A stretch of 42,701 bases of DNA, taken from NCBI GenBank assembly GCA_031282385.1, contig JAITDV010000477.1:1-42701 (forward strand), given 5' to 3'. Position numbers and translations under genes: made by a program. Shown one piece after another: positions 1 through 35,268 of the stretch. The number at the start of each line of letters is the position of its first letter. Position 1 is the first letter of the stretch. This DNA is from Planctomycetaceae bacterium (GTDB taxonomy: Bacteria; Planctomycetota; Planctomycetia; Pirellulales; Thermoguttaceae). The notes under the pieces are model-generated. The model made no database searches and was not told where the DNA came from. It saw only the letters and a program-made list of their open reading frames with translations.

Positions 1-213
1 AGGAATCAAAGTTTATAGAAATGAAATTCTTTTTTTACTAAAGGAATATTTACGCATTTGAAAATAAACAAATCTTAATTTTGGAAGATTTTGAACTCCC
101 TACCTTACAGGGTAAATGCAAAATTTTACATTGTGCAGTTTTAAAACACTAAATCCACTGAAATATTACGAAAACCGGAAATTGAAAAAGTGGAAATTAT
201 TTCACAACTTTTC

Positions 214-320
214 TATCTGATCGTACTACTAAATTGCGGGACTCAAGAGCATAAAAACCCGCTTGCCGAATAGGTAAGCAGGCGACGGTAATGGAAACTC
301 AAAGTGTGAACGGTTTATAA
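214..320 (+). mobile_element. M1 MITE copy
   Basis: Matches the M1 consensus TTATACTGTTCGTACTATAAATTGCGGGACTCAAGAGCGTAAAAGCCTGCTTTCCGATAGGTAAGCAGGCGGTGGTAAAGGAAATTTAAAGTGTGAACAGTTTAAA. Left end is diverged. Confidence 0.8.
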
Positions 321-1694: not shown

Positions 1695-2308
1695 TAGGTT
1701 CTCCGGTTTTTTAATTTAAACTACTCCTGAAATAAATGTTAAATTTCAGGTAACACTTATACCGAACTCATTTAATATCGTTAAAGTCAAAAACGCAAAA
1801 ATCGGTCTTTCACTCAAACCACATTCTAAATTCGGCAACACTAACACTCTGCCTATCACAAATTGATCTTCTAAAAACACGTAATATTTGACCAATTTAT
1901 TACACTATTGAATATAGGGAACTTCCAAAAATACAATTTGCCAAAAACAAATTTATTCGATTTCAGTCAACTGAATATCAAATAAATTTAATTTTTAGAA
2001 ATTCCATATAAATAAAAGCAAACTTTCTAATAGATAAACCTGCTCAAAATCCAAAGTGATTTATAAAAATTCTGTAACTATTCAGTTGCGAGTATAAAAT
2101 TTGACGATGTATTTCGTTTTGGAAAAACAGCGCAGACAACCCGCAACTTCACAAAGGAACAAAATCCCAATAATATCATTGCCCCGAAAGGACAGTAATA
2201 TGATCTTGCAACAAGTTTCTGCATTGCTCCTTGCGGAACGATATCAAAATATAAAACAACAAAGCCGTAATACCAAATTACTGAATTGTCGCCATTGAAT
2301 ATGCCCGA

Positions 2309-2706: not shown

Positions 2707-5136
2707 TTATTCGGCAAAATATTTACTCTTGTTGTTTTGGTTGTATTTATCTGAAGACAGTTGAATTGCTTTTAGTAGTTCGTTGCGGTCAATCGGTTTT
2801 GTCAAAACTGCATCGCAACCGGCTGCCCACGTTTCTGCTTCACTACCGAAATTTGCCGTAAGTGCAAGAATCGGTCTTTCAAACCCCCGCTGCCGCAATT
2901 CGCGTGTTGCTTCAAAACCGTCCATTACCGGCATTTGCATATCCATTAAAATAACATGAAACGGTTCACCCAACTCTTCACTTTCTACTACTTTTTCAAT
3001 TGCTGCCCGCCCATTTGTCGCCGTTTCTACTTTTGCGCCGGCGTCACGCAATTTCGCCTCCGCAACAAGCAAATTCACTACACCATCATCAACAACCAAC
3101 GCCCTAAAACCCGACAAAGGAAGCGAAACATCAACATCCTTGTCCTCCACCACAACCGAATTAACCGCATCAATAAAACTACTAAACACGGTATTTGAAA
3201 CCGGTGAAGTTGTGCCCATACGTCCTATTGGGGTTTTCGGTGTTAAAAAACCGGTTTGTAATGTTGACAACGAACCGGATGTTACGTTGTCTGGCAAACG
3301 AATTGGTAAAAGCAACGAAAATTTACTACCTTTACCAAGCTCGCTCTCAATCAAAATATCGCCGTGCATAAGTTGAGCTAATCCACGCGCAATTCCAAGC
3401 CCTAAACCCGTTCCACCGTACTTTCGTGTTGATGTTTCGTCAACTTGCGTGAACGGCTTAAATAAATAATTCACTTGCTCCGGCGTCATGCCAATTCCAG
3501 TATCAATAACATCAATACAAAGAATCGAAACATCAGGAAACATAGCTTGAAGGTCTGAAAGCGTTTGAGACGCTTTTATCAATAACGACGAAATCGTAAA
3601 TAACGACGAAATCGAATTTTGCAACTCCAAACTATCCGGCTGCTGCGTACCAAAAATACTGGTTGCAAGCACTGTCAAAAACGATTTATCAGTCTCAGGT
3701 TTAACTGTTTCTGGCACCGTAACTTTGAGTGCAGGAATAAATTGACAAACGATCTTGACATAACCTCGCTCCGTAAACTTTAACGCATTGCCGATAAGAT
3801 TAATCAAAATTTGCCTTATCCGCGTCGGATCGCCCAAAATCATCGGTGGAATTTTATCGTCAATTTCTACCAAAAATTCTACACCTACATTTTCTTCTAT
3901 CCTTGTCTGAAAAGTCTTTTTAATATCATTAATGACTCGTTTAATTGAAATCGGCACCATTTCTAATGTTATTCTGTTTGAATCCAACTTGGAAAAAGTC
4001 AACACGTCATCAATAATTGTCATCAGTTCTTTTCCGCTTTTGCGAATAATGTCAATAATTTCATTTTGTGTCAACCTTACTTTTTCACCCGCCGCCATCG
4101 CCGCCAACATATCAGAACAACCCAAAATCGCATTCATCGGTGTACGGATTTCATGCCCCATGTTCGCAAGAAAATGCCCCTTCGCTTGAACAGCAACCTC
4201 TGCATCACGCCGCGCTAACACCAGTTCCGTTACCGTCTTTTCCAACTCAATTGCATAACTCGTCAATCGCCTTTCTACTACTTGATGGGAAAACAAGAAT
4301 ACTTGAGCGCAAAAAAATAAAATAAGAAAAAGACCAAAAAACCACGTAGGCCAGAATTGCGCATCATGTATGCTCTCAATCCATTCCTCGCCCCAAAAAT
4401 CTACACCCAACACCGCTTCTACTGCTCCATTAGAATCATATACCGGCTCCGCAGCCGTAATCCAAAGTCCCCACCTGTCGCGTTCAGGTTTCTTGCTGAA
4501 ACTCGATTTGCCGTTGAATGCTTCAAGTATCTCAACAAACGTTTTAGGATCCGCTTCATACGTTTCGCCATTAGGAACTTCAGCCTCACGCTCATCCGAA
4601 AGAATATCGCCGGTGCCGCCATATTTATTGTCCCTGTTCAAATCTGCCGCCGGACAAAAAACAAACGCAAGCTCGTTGTCGCGAGTTTGACGCAAGGTAT
4701 AAATTGAAGCCGCAGAACCAATACGATCTTGCCACAATGACATCATATTTATTATCTTGACAAACTTCTGCTCTTCACGCGTAGTCTCAATTGTAATCTC
4801 CTCATGTCCCATGTTTTGAATCGCAATTGCAAAAGATTTGGACAAACCCGATAATTCATCCTTCTTCAATTTTTTTGCCCGTTCCGCCGACGCCAAAATA
4901 CAAAGCACGCCGAACACAAAAATTAAAAACAACAAAAACCAAGATACAAGCAAATACCTAACTTTAATCCGATGAGCCGAAATCGCCCAAAACGTTAATA
5001 CTAACATAAGTAATAACGAAAACATTATTATCGTTATCACAACCCAGTAATCATAAAAATAACCGGAAACCACCATACACATATCAAAAAAATTCTGCAT
5101 AGCCGATCCAAATAAGTTATTAAAAAAATAATTCAC
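2707..5136 (-). CDS. hybrid sensor histidine kinase / response regulator
   Basis: N-terminal TM segments flank a periplasmic-type sensor region. H-box [13 protein letters not shown]-box [11 protein letters not shown]-boxes DTGIGM and GGTGLGLGI, and a C-terminal receiver (VVDDG...[12 protein letters not shown]...ALTA). Start is uncertain: GTG at 5136 or ATG at 5100. Confidence 0.85.
3581..3616 (-). repeat. 18-bp tandem duplication inside the histidine kinase CDS
   Basis: AATAACGACGAAATCGTA followed by AATAACGACGAAATCGAA (17/18 identical), encoding [12 protein letters not shown]. Confidence 0.9.
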
Positions 5137-5235: not shown

Positions 5236-5340
5236 TTTAAACAGTTCACACTCTAAATTTCCTTTACCGCCGCCTGCTTACCTATCGGAAAGCAGGATTT
5301 TACGCTTTTGAGTCGCGCAACTTATAGTACGAACAGGATA
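5236..5340 (-). mobile_element. M1 MITE copy
   Basis: Full-length reverse-complement match, about 100 nt upstream of the histidine kinase start. Confidence 0.9.
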
Positions 5341-6610: not shown

Positions 6611-6717
6611 TTATGCTGACTCGTACTATGAATCGTTAGACTCAAGATCGTAAAAAACTGCTTTCCAATAACTAAACAGGAGGCAGTAAAGGAAATTTAA
6701 AGTGTGAGCAGTTTAAA
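6611..6717 (+). mobile_element. M1 MITE copy
   Basis: Full-length match; left end lies 22 nt from the hydF start codon. Confidence 0.85.
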
Positions 6718-8432: not shown

Positions 8433-8543
8433 TTATAATACTGTTCGTACTATCAATCGCGTGGCTCAAGATCGTAAAAGCCCGCTTTCTGATTGGTAAG
8501 CATGCGGAGATAAAGGAAATTTAAAATGTGAACAATTTCAAAA
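8433..8543 (+). mobile_element. M1 MITE copy
   Basis: Full-length match. Confidence 0.85.
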
Positions 8544-8657
8544 TAGACGATTATTTTTTTATTTTTTCGTCACGTCTGGACAACTTGGTATAAATCATAG
8601 ACAATACATTAATGAATCGCAATTATATCAAACACATTTTAGAATACGCAAAGCACG

Positions 8658-8778
8658 CTGTTGATACTATAAATCAGTTAATACTATATAAATTGCAAAT
8701 CTCAAAAGCGTAAAAGCAAGTTTTTCAATTCGATAAACTTGGGCAAGTTGCCAAAAATTCAAGTGTGAACAATTTAAA
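8658..8778 (+). mobile_element. M1 MITE copy (divergent)
   Basis: Duplicated left-end motif. The central stem is replaced by the compensated pair CAAGTTT (8717-8723) / AAACTTG (8735-8741). Confidence 0.75.
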
Positions 8779-9807: not shown

Positions 9808-9914
9808 TTTTAAAACTGTTCACACTTGAAGTCCTGTTTACCTTCGCCTGCTTACCTACCTAAAAGCAGGCTTTTACGCTCTTGAGTCCCGCAATTTATC
9901 GTATGAGCAATGTA
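9808..9914 (-). mobile_element. M1 MITE copy
   Basis: Full-length reverse match starting 5 nt after the stop codon of the 8886-9803 gene. Confidence 0.85.
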
Positions 9915-10125
9915 GCAGTACATACACATTAAAATCGATTTTTCATTTTTTGTATCATTTCACTCGCTGACAGGATTTGTTTGAAATGATACTTTCATTT
10001 TTAGAGAATTTCTTTTACCGTTACATTTATTTGTTATGCCCCCTGTTGCTTTTTTGATTGGAATTGTAACAATGTTATTCCATGTTTTATTTTGACCGAG
10101 CTTTGATAATTATTCTTATATTTAC

Positions 10126-10231
10126 TATATGCTGATCGTACTGTAAGTTGCGTAACCCAATAGCGTAAAAACGCGTTTTCCGATAAGTAAGCAGGCAAAG
10201 GTAAACGGAATTTAAAGTGTGAACAGTTTAA
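10126..10231 (+). mobile_element. M1 MITE copy
   Basis: Full-length match ending 19 nt before the sigma-54 activator start. Confidence 0.85.
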
Positions 10232-10250
10232 GAAGTAATTAAATTTTCAT

Positions 10251-12311
10251 TTGCCAAAGAAATTAATCGATATTTCCATGATACTAACCCAATCAGAAAA
10301 CGCTTATTTAATCCGAATCCAAAACGGTGAACAAAAAGAATTAGTCCCATTCAATTCCAATACGGAAGTAACTATTGGTCGATCTATCGACAATAAAATT
10401 TCGCTTCTCGATGACAGATGCAGCCGTTTCCACGCAAAAATTTATTTTGATTCAGGTCAATGGATTCTACAAGACCTTGGCAGCCGTAACGGAACATTTG
10501 TTGATGGCAAGCAAGTATTGTCTGAATCATTTGAGTTGCACCAAGACAGCCTGATTCAAATCGGACACTCAACTCTAAAATTCGGTTACGGTACACACGA
10601 AAATATAGAAACGGTTGCCAGTTTGGAAGAAGACGAAATCCATTCTGGAGTGTTCGGCATTACCGGCGATATGCTTCGCGCACCAGAAGCCAACAACAAT
10701 GAAACCGCAACAGGAATTTTACGGCGTACATCACAAACTTCCTTGCTAAAAGTTGACTCTGACGATAAACCAACCTCACAACTCACCACCCGCGCCGGTC
10801 ACGGCGCTGTTGAACTTTGTCGTCTTGCGTATCAACTTGGTAAAGCCGGAGAAATTAATCAAATTGCCCGTGCAGCAATCGAAGGCTTACTCAAAGCAAC
10901 CGGCGCAGACGGCGCCGGACTCTGGTTGTTTCCGTATAATTTGAAGTCATCACAAAACGCATCTGATATTCGGCTTGTTGCTAACGCTACACTTGAAGAT
11001 TTGCAATATAACGTTATTACCGAAGCAATTGTTCGTACAATTTTTGACAAAAAAGAAGCTTGCCTGTTCCATGAACCTAATATCGATTCCAAAACCGGTT
11101 CAAAATCAAAACAACGCGAAGGAAGCGTAAATACTCTGGTCGCCCCGATCCGTTTCCAAAACGGAATTCAAGGACTAATTCACCTCTACACGGTCAAAGA
11201 AAATAAACAATTCGACGACGCAGATTTACAATATACCCTTGCTGTCGCTGACACTCTTGGTGTCGCATTGGCAAACATGAATAAACAGAAAGAACTCGCC
11301 GCAAATCTAAATCAAGTTCGTAAAGAAAATAATAATTTACGCGAAATGTTACAAATGAACAGCGAAATAATCGGTAAAAGCGACGCAATGGCACAAGTAA
11401 ACAATTTGATTTTACGTGCCGCGTCAGGCAAGGCGACAGTTTTAATTCGCGGTGAAAGCGGTGTTGGCAAGGAGCTTATTGCAAGAGCAATTCATCTTGC
11501 AAGTCCGCGTAAATCAAAACCGCTTATTTGTATGAATTGTGCGGCAATTTCGGAGAACCTTCTTGAGAGCGAATTATTCGGACATGAAAGAGGCGCATTT
11601 ACCGGTGCAACTGAACGTAAAATTGGTAAATTTGAAGCGGCAAATACCGGTACACTTTTTTTAGATGAGATTGGAGAAATGAGCCCATCATTGCAAGCAA
11701 AATTTTTGCGTGTACTTGAAGGCAGTGCTTTTGAGCGGGTTGGCGGAAATTCGTCGATAACGGTTGACGTGCGGGTTTTGGCGGCAACGAATCGTGATTT
11801 GGAAAAGGAAGTTGCGGAAGGACGTTTTAGACATGATTTATTTTTCAGGTTGCGTGTACTGGAAATAATCGTGCCGCCGTTACGTAAAAGGGCAGAAGAT
11901 ATTCCTTTGTTGGCGGAGTATTTTTTGGATCGGTATTGTAAAGAAACGGGACGGCGTTATGACGGATTTGATTCGGAGGCAATGAGAGTATTGATTAGTT
12001 ACAGGTGGCCAGGGAATATTCGGGAGTTGAAGAATGTAATTGAGCGTGCAGTTGTCTTGGGCAACGGTCAATACATACAAGAACAAGATTTATTGCTCTC
12101 AACATTAAACACAACAGGCGAATCTGGAATCCGTGCAATCAATGAACATCAAGACGTATTTATTCCGCTATCTCTTGAAGACATGGAACGTAACCATATT
12201 ATACGCACTCTCGAACATCTGCAATGGAACAAAAGTCTAGTCGCAAAACAACTAGGAATAGAACGTACAACTCTTGATCGAAAAATCAAACGATACGGTC
12301 TGGAAAAATAA
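10251..12311 (+). CDS. sigma-54-dependent transcriptional activator (FHA - GAF - AAA+ - Fis-type HTH)
   Basis: FHA (GRSIDNKISL...SRFHA...GSRNGTFV). AAA+ with GESGVGKE, the ESELFGHERGAFTGA GAFTGA motif and FLDEIGE. C-terminal HTH (LVAKQLGIERTTLDRKIKRYGL). TTG at 10251; alternative ATG at 10278. Confidence 0.9.
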   Translation: MPKKLIDISMILTQSENAYLIRIQNGEQKELVPFNSNTEVTIGRSIDNKISLLDDRCSRFHAKIYFDSGQWILQDLGSRNGTFVDGKQVLSESFELHQDSLIQIGHSTLKFGYGTHENIETVASLEEDEIHSGVFGITGDMLRAPEANNNETATGILRRTSQTSLLKVDSDDKPTSQLTTRAGHGAVELCRLAYQLGKAGEINQIARAAIEGLLKATGADGAGLWLFPYNLKSSQNASDIRLVANATLEDLQYNVITEAIVRTIFDKKEACLFHEPNIDSKTGSKSKQREGSVNTLVAPIRFQNGIQGLIHLYTVKENKQFDDADLQYTLAVADTLGVALANMNKQKELAANLNQVRKENNNLREMLQMNSEIIGKSDAMAQVNNLILRAASGKATVLIRGESGVGKELIARAIHLASPRKSKPLICMNCAAISENLLESELFGHERGAFTGATERKIGKFEAANTGTLFLDEIGEMSPSLQAKFLRVLEGSAFERVGGNSSITVDVRVLAATNRDLEKEVAEGRFRHDLFFRLRVLEIIVPPLRKRAEDIPLLAEYFLDRYCKETGRRYDGFDSEAMRVLISYRWPGNIRELKNVIERAVVLGNGQYIQEQDLLLSTLNTTGESGIRAINEHQDVFIPLSLEDMERNHIIRTLEHLQWNKSLVAKQLGIERTTLDRKIKRYGLEK

Positions 12312-12779: not shown

Positions 12780-13463
12780 ATGACACAAATTAACCGTTAT
12801 CTCGATCACGCTGTTCTTGTTCCGCAATTCACACGGCAAGAAGCTATTGACTGGATCAAAAAAGGTGTTGAATACAAAGTTAAAACAGTTTGCGTTCGAC
12901 CTTGTGATATTGATATTGCGAAACAACTCACGGCAGGTTCGGAAACTGAAGTCTCTGTCGTTCTCGGTTTCCCGCACGGTACACAACTCACCGAATCCAA
13001 AACCGCCGAATCTGAACTCTATTGCAAAAAAGGTGTGCAGGAAATTGATATGGTCGCTAACTACGGCTGGATCAAAAGTGAACTTTGGGAAGAAGTAAAA
13101 GCTGATATTAAAGCTGTTGTAGATGTTGCACACAAGCATAATGTGTTGGTCAAAGTGATATTTGAAACCGCGCAACTAAACACCGAACAAATCATCAAAA
13201 CAACTGAATTGTCTATTGAAGCCGGTGCAGATTTCGTCAAAACATCCACAGGATTCAATGGCGACGGCGCAAAAGAAGAAGACGTCGATACAATGCTCAA
13301 AACCGCAAAAGGAAAAATCAAAGTTAAACCATCCGGCGGAATAAGAGATAACGCAAGAGCAAAATTATTTGTTGACAAAGGCGCACACCGACTCGGCGTA
13401 AATTGCACAAGTACTCCAAAAATTTGCGACGGTGGAACCACCGACACAAAAACCGGATATTAG
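12780..13463 (+). CDS. deoC: deoxyribose-phosphate aldolase
   Basis: LDHAVL, VCVRP, GFPHG, EIDMV, FVKTSTGF and KPSGGIR motifs typical of DeoC class I aldolase. Confidence 0.85.
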   Translation: MTQINRYLDHAVLVPQFTRQEAIDWIKKGVEYKVKTVCVRPCDIDIAKQLTAGSETEVSVVLGFPHGTQLTESKTAESELYCKKGVQEIDMVANYGWIKSELWEEVKADIKAVVDVAHKHNVLVKVIFETAQLNTEQIIKTTELSIEAGADFVKTSTGFNGDGAKEEDVDTMLKTAKGKIKVKPSGGIRDNARAKLFVDKGAHRLGVNCTSTPKICDGGTTDTKTGY

Positions 13464-13524
13464 TAAACTATTCACACTTTAAATTTCCTTCACCTTCGCC
13501 TGCTTAGCTATCGGAAAGCAGGTT
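13464..13524 (-). mobile_element. M1 truncated copy (right TIR through hairpin)
   Basis: Starts immediately after the deoC stop codon and abuts the next full copy. Confidence 0.75.
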
Positions 13525-13629
13525 TTTAAACTGTTCACACTTTAATTTCCTTTACCTTCGCCTGCTTACCTATTGGAAAGCAGGCTTTTATGCTCTTGGG
13601 TCACACAATTTATAATACGAGCGGTACAA
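13525..13629 (-). mobile_element. M1 MITE copy
   Basis: Full-length reverse match. Confidence 0.85.
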
Positions 13630-13753: not shown

Positions 13754-15313
13754 ATGAGAAAGTTGGTATTTATTTCTGTTCCGGGTTTACGCAGAATAGA
13801 TGTTGAGCGATTACCCGAGCTTCGCGCAATGACTTCTAGTGGCGGCATGGCAACTCTTACGTCTGGATTTCCGGCTGTTACTTGTCCGGTACAATCAAAT
13901 ATGACAACAGGCGTTCGCCCTGATCAACATGGAATAGTTGCAAATGGTTTATATCTCAAAAACGTTGATAAAGTTGATTTGGAATTGCGGTTGGAGTCGA
14001 AATTGTCGGGTGCAAAATTGTTCGGTAATATTGTTTCGAGTTGTAATTTTGATCCTGAAATTAAGCAGCCGGTTTGGCCTAAATCTGAAAATTTGCCATA
14101 TATTGAGATGTGGACTTCACCGAATTCAGCGGTGGAATCGCCCCAAATCTGGGACGTGTTACGCGGTAAACAAGACAATACATATCAACGGCAATTTAGA
14201 ATTCGGCGGCGCAAAAGTATTAATACAGGTTTGCCAATATTTCAGTCCGTGCGTATAAACAGAAATTCAAGGGTGAACAAGTTAAAATCTGCGGTTTGGT
14301 TTGCGTTATTGAGTAAATTTTGTCTTGCCGATTACGTGTGCAATTTTGCGCCGATTCATAATCCTGACGGTAGTGAATCGTTGTGGTGTTATACCAGACC
14401 GTATCTTTTTTATGGCGGCTTGCGGGACAAGTTGGGGCATTTTCCTGTTCAAGGTTACTGGGGACCGCTGGCTGGACAATCCGCGTCGGAATGGATAGTT
14501 GATTCTGCGATTATCGGCGCAAATAAATTTAAGCCGGATTATTTTTACGTATATGTACCGCGTCTTGATTACACGCCGCAAAAATTCGGTGCAAACGCTT
14601 CGGAACTTTCGGCGGACTTGGCGGATTTGAATAAGTTGTTTGTCAAATTACGTGCGGGATTCACTGAAGCATTGGGTTGCGAACCGACTTGGTTGATTGC
14701 GGGCGAGTATGCGGTAACTGATGTTAGTTCTGTTGTTTATCCGAATCGGATTTTGCGGGAGATGGGCTTGCTGTCTATCGAAGAACGCAATGGGCAAGAG
14801 TATTTGTTGCCGAGCAAGTCGCGTTGTTTTGCACTGTGCGATCATCAATTTTCACACATCCATTTTAATGACGCCGATCCGCAATTGATGCAACGTGTTG
14901 CAGATAAATTCCGTAACGAGTCCGGGATTGACGAAGTGTTGGTCGGAGATGAAAGGGCAAAATATAACTTGACGCATCGGAGAAGCGGAGAAATCATACT
15001 CATTTCAGAACCAGACAGTTGGCAAGCGTATTATTTTTGGAATGATGATTCAAAAGTGCCGGAATACGCACGCAAAGTTGATATTCATCGTAAACCGGGT
15101 TATGATCCGGTGGAGCTTTTTTTTGATCGCGAAACAATGTCTGTACCGCTCGATGCAAATTTGATTCGCGGTTCTCACGGCGCACCGGCTCGCGATAATT
15201 CGCAGAAAACTGTTGTTCTTGCAAGTAAACCGGAATTACTTGCAGACAAAAAACAATTCGATGATATTGATATGTTCAATATCGTAAATCAATTCTTTAA
15301 GGGAAAAGTTTAG
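13754..15313 (+). CDS. alkaline-phosphatase superfamily / nucleotide pyrophosphatase-phosphodiesterase family protein
   Basis: N-terminal VFISVPGLR...SGFPAVTCPVQSNMTTG...HGIVANG is typical of the type I phosphodiesterase (Phosphodiest) family. The ORF contains a basic, low-complexity insert that looks MITE-derived (see findings). Confidence 0.6.
   Translation: MRKLVFISVPGLRRIDVERLPELRAMTSSGGMATLTSGFPAVTCPVQSNMTTGVRPDQHGIVANGLYLKNVDKVDLELRLESKLSGAKLFGNIVSSCNFDPEIKQPVWPKSENLPYIEMWTSPNSAVESPQIWDVLRGKQDNTYQRQFRIRRRKSINTGLPIFQSVRINRNSRVNKLKSAVWFALLSKFCLADYVCNFAPIHNPDGSESLWCYTRPYLFYGGLRDKLGHFPVQGYWGPLAGQSASEWIVDSAIIGANKFKPDYFYVYVPRLDYTPQKFGANASELSADLADLNKLFVKLRAGFTEALGCEPTWLIAGEYAVTDVSSVVYPNRILREMGLLSIEERNGQEYLLPSKSRCFALCDHQFSHIHFNDADPQLMQRVADKFRNESGIDEVLVGDERAKYNLTHRRSGEIILISEPDSWQAYYFWNDDSKVPEYARKVDIHRKPGYDPVELFFDRETMSVPLDANLIRGSHGAPARDNSQKTVVLASKPELLADKKQFDDIDMFNIVNQFFKGKV
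14181..14287 (+). mobile_element. candidate degenerate M1 copy embedded in frame in the 13754-15313 CDS
   Basis: Right end AGAAATTCAAGGGTGAACAAGTTAAAA matches GGAAATTTAAAGTGTGAACAGTTTAAAA at about 21/27 positions. GCGCAAAAG matches the GCGTAAAAG core. Total length is 107 nt as in canonical copies. Left half is weak. Confidence 0.35.
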
Positions 15314-15348: not shown

Positions 15349-15622
15349 TATACTGTTCGGACTACAATTTGTGTGACTCAAGAGTGTAAAAGCCCGCTTT
15401 CCGATAGGTAAGCAGGCGGTGGTAAAAGAAAATTAAAGTTGACCTTTTCGCTAACCTGTAGGAGACCACCCCTAACCCCTCCGAAGGAGGGGAATTATTC
15501 CCCACCTTCGGAGGGGTTAGGGGTGGTCTCGGAGGAGTTAAAGGCGGTTTTTCGTTGTAGGTTTTTTGTTGCGTTGATGTATTTTTAGGTTAGAGAAAAG
15601 GTCTAGTGTAAACAGTTTAAAA
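15349..15622 (+). mobile_element. M1 MITE copy split by an M2 insertion
   Basis: M1 left part 15349-15439 and right part 15605-15622, interrupted by M2 (15440-15604). Ends 3 nt before the YitJ-type gene start. Confidence 0.9.
15440..15604 (+). mobile_element. M2 MITE copy (165 bp) nested in M1, AGT/AGT flanks
   Basis: Near-consensus copy: AGACCTTTTCGCTAACCTGTAGGAGACCACCCCTAACCCCTCCGAAGGAGGGGAATTATTCCCCACCTTCGGAGGGGTTAGGGGTGGTCTCGGAGGAGTTAAAGGCGG...TTTTTAGGTTAGAGAAAAGGTCT. Confidence 0.95.
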
Positions 15623-31746: not shown

Positions 31747-32056
31747 CCAACTCCACAACCAATATCATTGTCTCAAGAAAGTTATACTCTATGAGGATAA
31801 TACCATTTTTTATTTTTTTGAAAATACCAGGATTAGTGTTGTGCTTTTTTGCAATTTAACTTATAATTCCGCTCTGCGTTGGTTGACGCAGTGCAAGGTT
31901 GCCGGATTTAGAATTTTTGTAACAAAAAAATCCGGCAATGTTAAGTTGCGGAAAAGTTGGTTGAGTTCTGTCTAAATTGTGTTTGTACAGAAAGAGAACT
32001 TTCCGTACCAATCAGTCAGTTATTGCAATTACTTTTCATACTGTTCAGAAAAAAAA

Positions 32057-32160
32057 TTAAACTGCTCACACTTGAAATTTCCTTCACCGCCGCCCGCTTG
32101 ACTACATACAAGCAAGCTTTGACACTCTTGAGCCGCACAATTCATAGTACGAAATGTATA
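32057..32160 (-). mobile_element. M1 MITE copy
   Basis: Reverse match. The stem is replaced by the compensated pair GCTTG (32096-32100) / CAAGC (32109-32113). Confidence 0.8.
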
Positions 32161-35107: not shown

Positions 35108-35268
35108 ATATACTGCCCGTCCTATAAATTGTGAGACTCAAGAGCGCACACTGCTCGGACAATAAAATAAATTGCGCGATTGCAGAGCGTAAAAGCATGA
35201 TTTCCAATAGAGGAACAGGCGGCGGCAAAAGAAACACCAAGTGTGAACGGTTTAAACTGTTCACACTT
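35108..35268 (+). mobile_element. M1 copy with internal duplication plus an inverted solo right TIR
   Basis: The ATAAATTG(T/C)G..AGAGCG segment occurs twice. The right end is followed head-to-head by a second right TIR, giving the palindrome AAGTGTGAACGGTTTAAACTGTTCACACTT. Confidence 0.75.

Follow-up and report, generated by a model that had tools for sequence, protein, structure and literature searches.

A probable M1 repeat insertion translated in frame within an NPP-type enzyme gene of a termite-gut planctomycete

Background

In-frame fusions between miniature inverted-repeat transposable elements, or MITEs, and genes are described as "not unusual" in a 2024 review, with the Rickettsia palindromic elements (RPEs) as the extreme case (PMC10969869), and the QMITEs of Coxiella burnetii contribute basic peptides to proteins (PMC5896051). 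Here we describe an apparent case of this kind on contig JAITDV010000477.1, the whole 42,701-nt stretch of which was analysed and is referred to below as the window. The DNA comes from a termite-gut metagenome, and its nearest protein relatives are annotated as Planctomycetaceae metagenome-assembled genomes (MAGs). Repeat finding reveals a family of ~105 nt, denoted M1, which is dispersed over almost all intergenic regions of the window; one M1-like segment is located inside a gene for a nucleotide pyrophosphatase/phosphodiesterase (NPP)-type protein of the alkaline phosphatase superfamily. A first-pass annotation of this DNA proposed an in-frame, M1-derived insertion at 14181-14287 and considered such events to be rare outside Rickettsia, an opinion that is at odds with both the review and the Coxiella QMITEs.

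As far as RPEs are described in the review's account of Ogata et al. 2000 (PMC10969869), the M1 case resembles them in that a short, non-coding mobile repeat is present in frame in a conserved metabolic gene and apparently yields, on translation, an additional stretch of protein where the fold can accommodate it, leaving the host gene intact. The differences are substantial, however. M1 is probably unrelated to RPEs in sequence, its length is different, and its host belongs to Planctomycetota from the termite gut; only one of the ~19 M1 copies in the window is found within an open reading frame (ORF) compared to nearly half in some RPE families, going by the same account; no open frame is conserved in M1, most copies of which contain 1-2 stop codons; and the in-gene M1 copy is no longer palindromic. 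Homology to RPEs is not expected because phylum, sequence and length all differ, and, by analogy, the M1 insertion is best viewed as working like an RPE without being one.

The Correia elements of Neisseria (Correia repeat enclosed elements, CREE, or nemis) represent a ~105-nt class with a TA duplication. M1 shares with these elements the size of ~105 nt, terminal inverted repeats that start with TATA, and TA at both ends, but has no sequence similarity to them. Similarly to the Correia elements, M1 reaches a high copy number and is mostly intergenic, by gene starts (PMC10969869); unlike the coding insertions of Correia elements, which are disruptive and strain-variable (PMC10969869), the M1 case appears to be a stable in-frame loop. 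Judged by this comparison, the anatomy of M1 seems to be closest to that of Correia-type, TA-flanked MITEs. The QMITE1 and QMITE2 elements overlap ORFs or lie in frame within them and encode very basic peptides with an isoelectric point (pI) of ~12 (PMC5896051), as in the present case; these elements, however, affect mostly hypothetical proteins or gene ends, whereas the M1 copy is located mid-gene in a well-conserved enzyme with empty orthologous sites.

Thus, the locus is a new example of a known phenomenon and does not call for a new mechanism. What is particular to it is that an AT-rich, inverted-repeat-bearing and nearly always intergenic element has lost its own structure whereas the frame of the host has been kept open. 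The case is a clean one outside Rickettsia, with a transposable-element fragment within an apparently working enzyme and with empty sites, a candidate-free profile and a bridging variant as controls, and the host is an uncultured planctomycete of the termite gut in which M1 saturates the intergenic regions.

Results and discussion

An M1-derived insertion in the NPP-type gene

The alignment of the host protein (P0001) with its six closest orthologues (P0002-P0007, 73-85% identical; the close orthologues identified by the protein search consist of 467-499 aa) shows that residues 141-174 are absent from all six. At the codon level, three orthologous loci (L001, L002 and L003) read IWDVLRGK[PKQ]NP[VI]KSAVWF where the window has IWDVLRGKQ-DNTYQ...NSRV-NKLKSAVWF, so that 102 nt are gained on balance. 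Accordingly, the loop between W133 and W182 consists of 48 aa in P0001 compared to 14 aa in 92 of 120 homologues. In a tree built with the variable loops removed, P0001 is nested within a seven-member clade with 99% support, and the other six members carry the 14-aa loop; therefore the insertion is derived and maps to the terminal branch leading to the window. The comparison with orthologues thus favours the proposed insertion.

The terminal inverted repeats of the M1 consensus span 22 nt (18/22 complementary when TATACTGTTCGTACTATAAATT is compared with the reverse-complemented right end; the end sequence is TATACTGTTCGTAC...), and its centre holds an 8-bp hairpin with the arms GCCTGCTT...AAGCAGGC or a compensated variant thereof; the 105-nt consensus folds with a minimum free energy (MFE) of -34.3 kcal/mol. 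The copies are 104-110 nt long, and most intergenic ones begin with TA followed by TAC and finish with TTTA followed by TA or AA; the TA at the ends is probably a target duplication. Once one TA is subtracted, a 104-nt copy would account for the 102 nt gained, in keeping with this range of copy lengths. With stop codons in most of its frames, the family has the generic features of MITEs, being short, non-coding and multi-copy, with inverted repeats and presence/absence at orthologous positions, the site being empty in L001-L003.

An nhmmer profile of M1 was made from six seed copies, iterated, and then rebuilt from 15 strong copies, without the candidate. The search detects 15 near-full copies in the window with E-values from 1e-15 to 1e-32, plus fragments, ~19 matches in total. 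The candidate-free profile also matches positions 14200-14285 of the plus strand with the score of 22.1 bits and an E-value of 4.2e-6 for the window. This match runs without gaps from model position 19 to position 104 (of 105), that is, collinear with nearly the full length of M1, and falls exactly on the insertion defined by the orthologues. Already the six-seed profile matched this segment with an E-value of 6.5e-4; the value of 2e-12 from the second nhmmer iteration was discarded as circular given that the candidate was included in the profile. When the window was shuffled 200 times with its dinucleotides preserved (8.5 Mb in total), the top score was 11.8 bits; with all nhmmer filters off, the match at 14200-14285 remains the only M1 match in the gene.

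Independent support for the M1 origin comes from the same metagenome run (X1), in which a different contig (780 nt, depth 8.0) carries a variant M1 copy with 5 differences in 37 nt compared to positions 14203-14239 of the window. There, TATACTGAACGTACTTTAAAA stands before the match and corresponds to the M1 left end (17/21 to the consensus), and GGTAAACCAACACGG..., which resembles M1 from model position 59 onward, comes after it, such that the register of the contig is exactly that of the profile alignment. An ordinary M1 variant thus bridges the consensus and the in-gene copy, and therefore part of the distance from the consensus is a subfamily difference and not decay. The variant was found neither in the window nor in any other locus examined.

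The first-pass proposal is therefore borne out by the orthologues that lack the segment together with the candidate-free match on it. Among its details, the likeness of the right end to M1 holds in the profile register (17/22), and the basic character of the segment is reflected in the pI of 12.0 for residues 141-174. The claimed equivalence of GCGCAAAAG and the M1 core GCGTAAAAG, in contrast, is found neither in the profile register, where GCGCAAAAG faces ACTCAAGAG of the model, nor in that of the global alignment, so that this likeness is probably coincidental.

Several observations weigh against an M1 origin or against the way it is interpreted here. The in-gene copy is only 59% (51/86) identical to the M1 consensus. 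Its left inverted repeat matches the consensus at 7/22 positions without gaps and is not recognisable, and the central hairpin is lost. Divergence at the junctions hides any TA target duplication, neither of which can be reconstructed, and the empty-site comparison relies on orthologues from other lineages that are 73-85% identical. Most M1 copies hold 1-2 stop codons in the frame that is used in the gene, whereas the in-gene copy has none. Finally, the surface exposure of the insert, discussed below, is deduced from the confidence of the structural model and the variability of the loop. When aligned by hand, the left end matches the left end of the variant copy at ~15/22 positions, and the 5' hairpin arm and the loop of the in-gene copy also resemble the variant (ACAGGTTTGCCAATA), with the 3' arm gone. 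The MFE of the in-gene region is -15.4 kcal/mol for 132 nt, which, against the value for the 105-nt consensus, is consistent with decay of the hairpin after the insertion. An open or early-repaired source copy has to be assumed because most M1 copies carry stops in this frame, and it is plausible that the source copy was open or nearly so because some M1 copies differ at the stop positions, several being without the upstream TGA and others having TTCAAG in place of TAA.

The low identity to the consensus, the AT-rich composition with many A-runs (nhmmer bias term 5.0), and the growth of the same loop by other routes in other lineages would all be compatible with expansion of the loop by slippage, by another repeat or by a recombination patch, the likeness to M1 being coincidental or compositional. 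This explanation appears highly improbable given the E-value of 4.2e-6 compared to the top score in the shuffled sequences, the collinear, ungapped match of the right length exactly on the insertion, and the variant M1 copy, which keeps to the same register with 32/37 identical positions and has M1 termini on its flanks.

Taken together, these observations are best compatible with the insertion of an M1 element in frame into surface-loop codons of the NPP-type enzyme gene, followed by partial decay, such that the element is now translated; we assign this reading a probability of about 0.88. Under this scenario, M1 would be a non-autonomous transposable element of ~105 nt with 22-nt terminal inverted repeats and, probably, TA target duplication, a copy of which would have entered the loop codons after this lineage diverged from the closest relatives sampled. 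A net addition of 102 nt would preserve the reading frame, the source copy would have been stop-free in that frame or would have lost its stops soon after the insertion, and the element would then simply be translated as a 34-residue loop, presumably a neutral one. The DNA features of the element would no longer be maintained, its left inverted repeat having decayed along with the central hairpin, and the frame would stay open because a stop codon would truncate an enzyme that is still under selection.

The host enzyme

The host protein matches the Pfam profile PF01663 (Phosphodiest, type I phosphodiesterase/nucleotide pyrophosphatase) with the score of 100.8 bits (curated cut-off 23) and an E-value of 1.5e-28, and NCBIfam contains no model that names the enzyme family. 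A Foldseek search started with the predicted fold identifies similarity to autotaxin, phosphonoacetate hydrolase (PhnA) and ENPP6, with E-values of ~1e-16. The threonine nucleophile motif FPAVTCP aligns with YPSLTFP of the PDB entry 2gsn, the Xanthomonas NPP, and the family retains DHQ..H and GSHG. Throughout the family, however, a proline replaces a metal-ligand aspartate of 2gsn (SIPGLR vs SIDGLR), and a glutamine replaces a metal-ligand histidine (LDYxxQ vs VDEAGH). These substitutions are a family-wide property and not a consequence of the insertion, and the metal site of this planctomycete NPP-like family may be non-canonical. Synteny with the DeoC gene upstream extends to L001-L003.

M1 copies usually carry stops in the relevant frame, so the original insertion might have disrupted the gene, and the host could in principle be a pseudogene or be on the way to becoming one, with the open frame left over from an enzyme that the insertion inactivated. 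This possibility is very unlikely because the ORF extends over the full length of 519 aa without a frameshift, all 68 columns that are invariant across the 120 homologues are retained in P0001, and the terminal branch of P0001 is not accelerated (0.088 vs 0.06-0.085 for the sisters). Moreover, fourfold-degenerate sites are near saturation in comparisons with the orthologues (46-55% identical) whereas the proteins are 82-85% identical, which implies purifying selection on the host gene along this lineage. The conservation pattern thus suggests an enzyme that apparently works.

Properties of the inserted loop

The insert changes the pI of the whole protein from 6.05 to 8.25. The AlphaFold2 model, for which the run with the 120-sequence alignment was used (the 17-sequence alignment gave a predicted local distance difference test score, pLDDT, of 63), has a pLDDT of 90.8 and a predicted template modelling score of 0.91. 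The pLDDT of residues 141-170 is 54-57; in the model, helix 132-149 extends into the insert and is followed by coil up to strand 179-182. Thus, the insert is predicted to form a loop that is arginine-rich and probably disordered, and it is likely to be surface-exposed.

The shift in pI and the modelling of residues 132-149 as a single helix running into the insert might be taken to indicate co-option of the M1-derived peptide, e.g., to bind a nucleic acid or anionic lipid substrate, to serve in localisation or to regulate the enzyme; the frame that stays open while the DNA features of the element decay would fit this idea as well. We consider such co-option unlikely. The open frame is already accounted for by selection on the downstream 345 residues, the pLDDT of the insert is ~55, and basic peptides are a common by-product of translated AT-rich MITEs, e.g., QMITE1 with the pI of 12.4 (PMC5896051). 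A single sequence carries the insert, so selection on the insert itself is not measurable.

The M1 family

In the window, M1 is overwhelmingly intergenic (1 of ~19 copies inside an ORF), and the long ORFs contain no match with an E-value below 1e-4 apart from the candidate. Most intergenic regions carry at least one copy, and the orientation of the copies relative to the neighbouring genes shows no clear bias, with ~7 directed toward a gene start and 6 away from it. At the M1 copy at 15349, contigs from the source run stack to a summed depth of 648, compared to 8.5 for unique sequence, and therefore the copy number of M1 in the metagenome is in the dozens.

A search for the 21-mer from the M1 right end among genome contigs identifies M1 relatives in three further termite-gut Planctomycetaceae MAGs (L004-L006); the same 21-mer has no match among metagenome contigs, and the pattern CTGTTCGTAC-N(25-40)-GCTTTCCGATAGGT has none among either genome or metagenome contigs. 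None of the M1 matches in L003-L006 lies within a frame of at least 120 aa. M1 is absent from the 14.4-kb contig of the closest orthologue (L001), and therefore it has expanded in the lineage of the window. A weak M1-like relic (13.7 bits, E 8e-4) is present at L003:2504-2566, in the intergenic region directly downstream of the orthologous gene, which hints that M1 predates the split of the window and L003 lineages. Rfam contains no family for M1 and yields only one tRNA in the window.

Table 1. Coordinates of the M1 copies, the host gene and related insertions
Feature	Sequence	Coordinates	Strand	Evidence and remarks
Host gene, NPP-type alkaline-phosphatase-superfamily protein, 519 aa, intact	window	13754..15313	+	Pfam PF01663
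Net inserted block, 34 codons (102 nt), encoding DNTYQRQFRIRRRKSINTGLPIFQSVRINRNSRV (residues 141-174)	window	14174..14275	+	protein and codon alignments; boundaries ambiguous by ~12 nt
M1-homologous span, extrapolated from the ungapped register (model 1-105)	window	14182..14286	+	aligned 14200-14285, envelope 14184-14287
In-gene centre-left part	window	14203..14239	+	32/37 identical to M1 variant copy on another contig of metagenome run X1
Right terminal inverted repeat remnant ATTCAAGGGTGAACAAGTTAAA, translated ..NSRVNKLK	window	14265..14286	+	17/22 identical to consensus model 84-105
Older 43-aa segment, residues 74-116, spanning the second relic of the first-pass annotation	window	13973..14101	+	in 18/120 homologues; conserved DPxxxxPxWPK
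Two adjoining intergenic M1 copies (one full, one partial)	window	13462..13628	-	directly upstream of host gene; nhmmer E 1.4e-28, 2.6e-17
Intergenic M1 copy split by M2 element	window	15349..15452	+	directly downstream of host gene; nhmmer E 3.2e-26, model 1-97; repeat families D1 and D5
M1-bearing intergenic regions (examples)	window	213-319, 775-883, 2310-2687, 5236-5340, 6612-6717, 8437-8778		
M1-bearing intergenic regions (examples, continued)	window	9810-10232, 13462-13628, 15349-15452, 32056-32160, 35109-35256		
78-nt hairpin	L012 (P0064)	~2165-2245		108-nt loop-coding segment around the hairpin, MFE -61.5 kcal/mol
Composite of GGGGACAGTCCC...GGGACAGTCCCC hairpin and CCCTCACCC..CCCTCTCCCgaaGGGAGAGGG palindrome	L007 (P0072)	10290-10390		
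Related CCCTCTCCC-type palindromes	L010 and L008			
Hairpin in the other loop, arms AAACGGGGACAGGCACC / GGAGCCAGTCCCCGTTT as in L012	L013 (P0101)	4905-4997		MFE -45.4 kcal/mol

Two permissive loops in the NPP-like family

Among the 120 homologues, insertions of at least 12 residues are confined to two internal places, one following residue 70-73 and the other following residue 140. In the second place, ten proteins from at least four lineages have 16-34 extra residues; nine homologues other than P0001 carry insertions of 16-31 aa in the same loop. The DNA of the inserts was read where it was retrievable (L007, L008, L010, L012 and L013; P0022, P0026, P0029 and P0068 were left out) and is hairpin-forming or palindromic (Table 1). 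The loop after residue 140 is thus a permissive hot spot; in at least three planctomycete lineages besides that of the window, it accommodates palindromic repeats that are GC-rich, in frame and unrelated, which is a further observation contrary to the supposed rarity of in-frame repeats outside Rickettsia. The M1 insertion has in common with these GC-rich repeats that a permissive loop contains a translated repeat whose family differs by lineage; unlike these hairpins, M1 is a MITE that is AT-rich and bounded by terminal inverted repeats, and the copy in the gene has decayed in structure.

Two more copies of the CCCTCTCCCgaaGGGAGAGGG palindrome are located in the intergenic region directly downstream of the P0072 gene (L007:11442-11568). 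The sister of P0072, P0089 from L010, has only the second module of the composite insert in common with it. The GC-rich hairpin family with the arms AAACGGGGACAGGCACC / GGAGCCAGTCCCCGTTT encodes the peptide signature (K/E)TGTGT...EPVPV and is found in two loops, in different planctomycete lineages (L012 and L013). Within an 18-member clade, the hairpin of the P0064 group is present in P0022, P0026, P0029, P0064 and P0068 and is lacking in 13 proteins, which corresponds to four changes on the tree. An approximately unbiased (AU) test does not reject a single origin of the five KTGTG-hairpin proteins (p 0.105), and multiple gains are not demonstrated by it; the patchy distribution could reflect repeated precise loss, recombination or re-insertion. 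Jointly, these cases provide a natural map of where the NPP-like fold tolerates insertions of 20-35 residues and add to the evidence that loops of planctomycete proteins commonly grow through the insertion of repeats.

The first of the two places is occupied in the window by an older 43-aa segment. The first-pass annotation suspected a second M1 relic at 14015-14120; a search with nhmmer --max and E-values up to 1000 detects no M1 match there on either strand, and the region, which is not detectably M1-derived, belongs to this segment, which is common to the whole clade of the window. The same annotation correctly noticed that the spacing between the HGIVANG and IWD motifs exceeds the expectation by 40-45 aa: there are 54 residues between G65 and W120 compared to 11 in 99 of the 120 homologues, and this long spacing, too, is clade-wide.

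On a bolder view, the two loops might be recurrent retention sites for unrelated selfish repeats (an AT-rich MITE and at least two families of GC-rich hairpins, one of which occurs in both loops), and the 43-aa segment itself, which is now conserved and partly helical, might be a repeat insertion domesticated long ago. This is a speculative and unlikely proposition; if it is true, insertion of selfish repeats would regularly supply proteins of the phylum with new structured segments. The 43-aa segment is missing in P0014 and P0016 and present in their sister P0008, and therefore it has been secondarily lost at least once.

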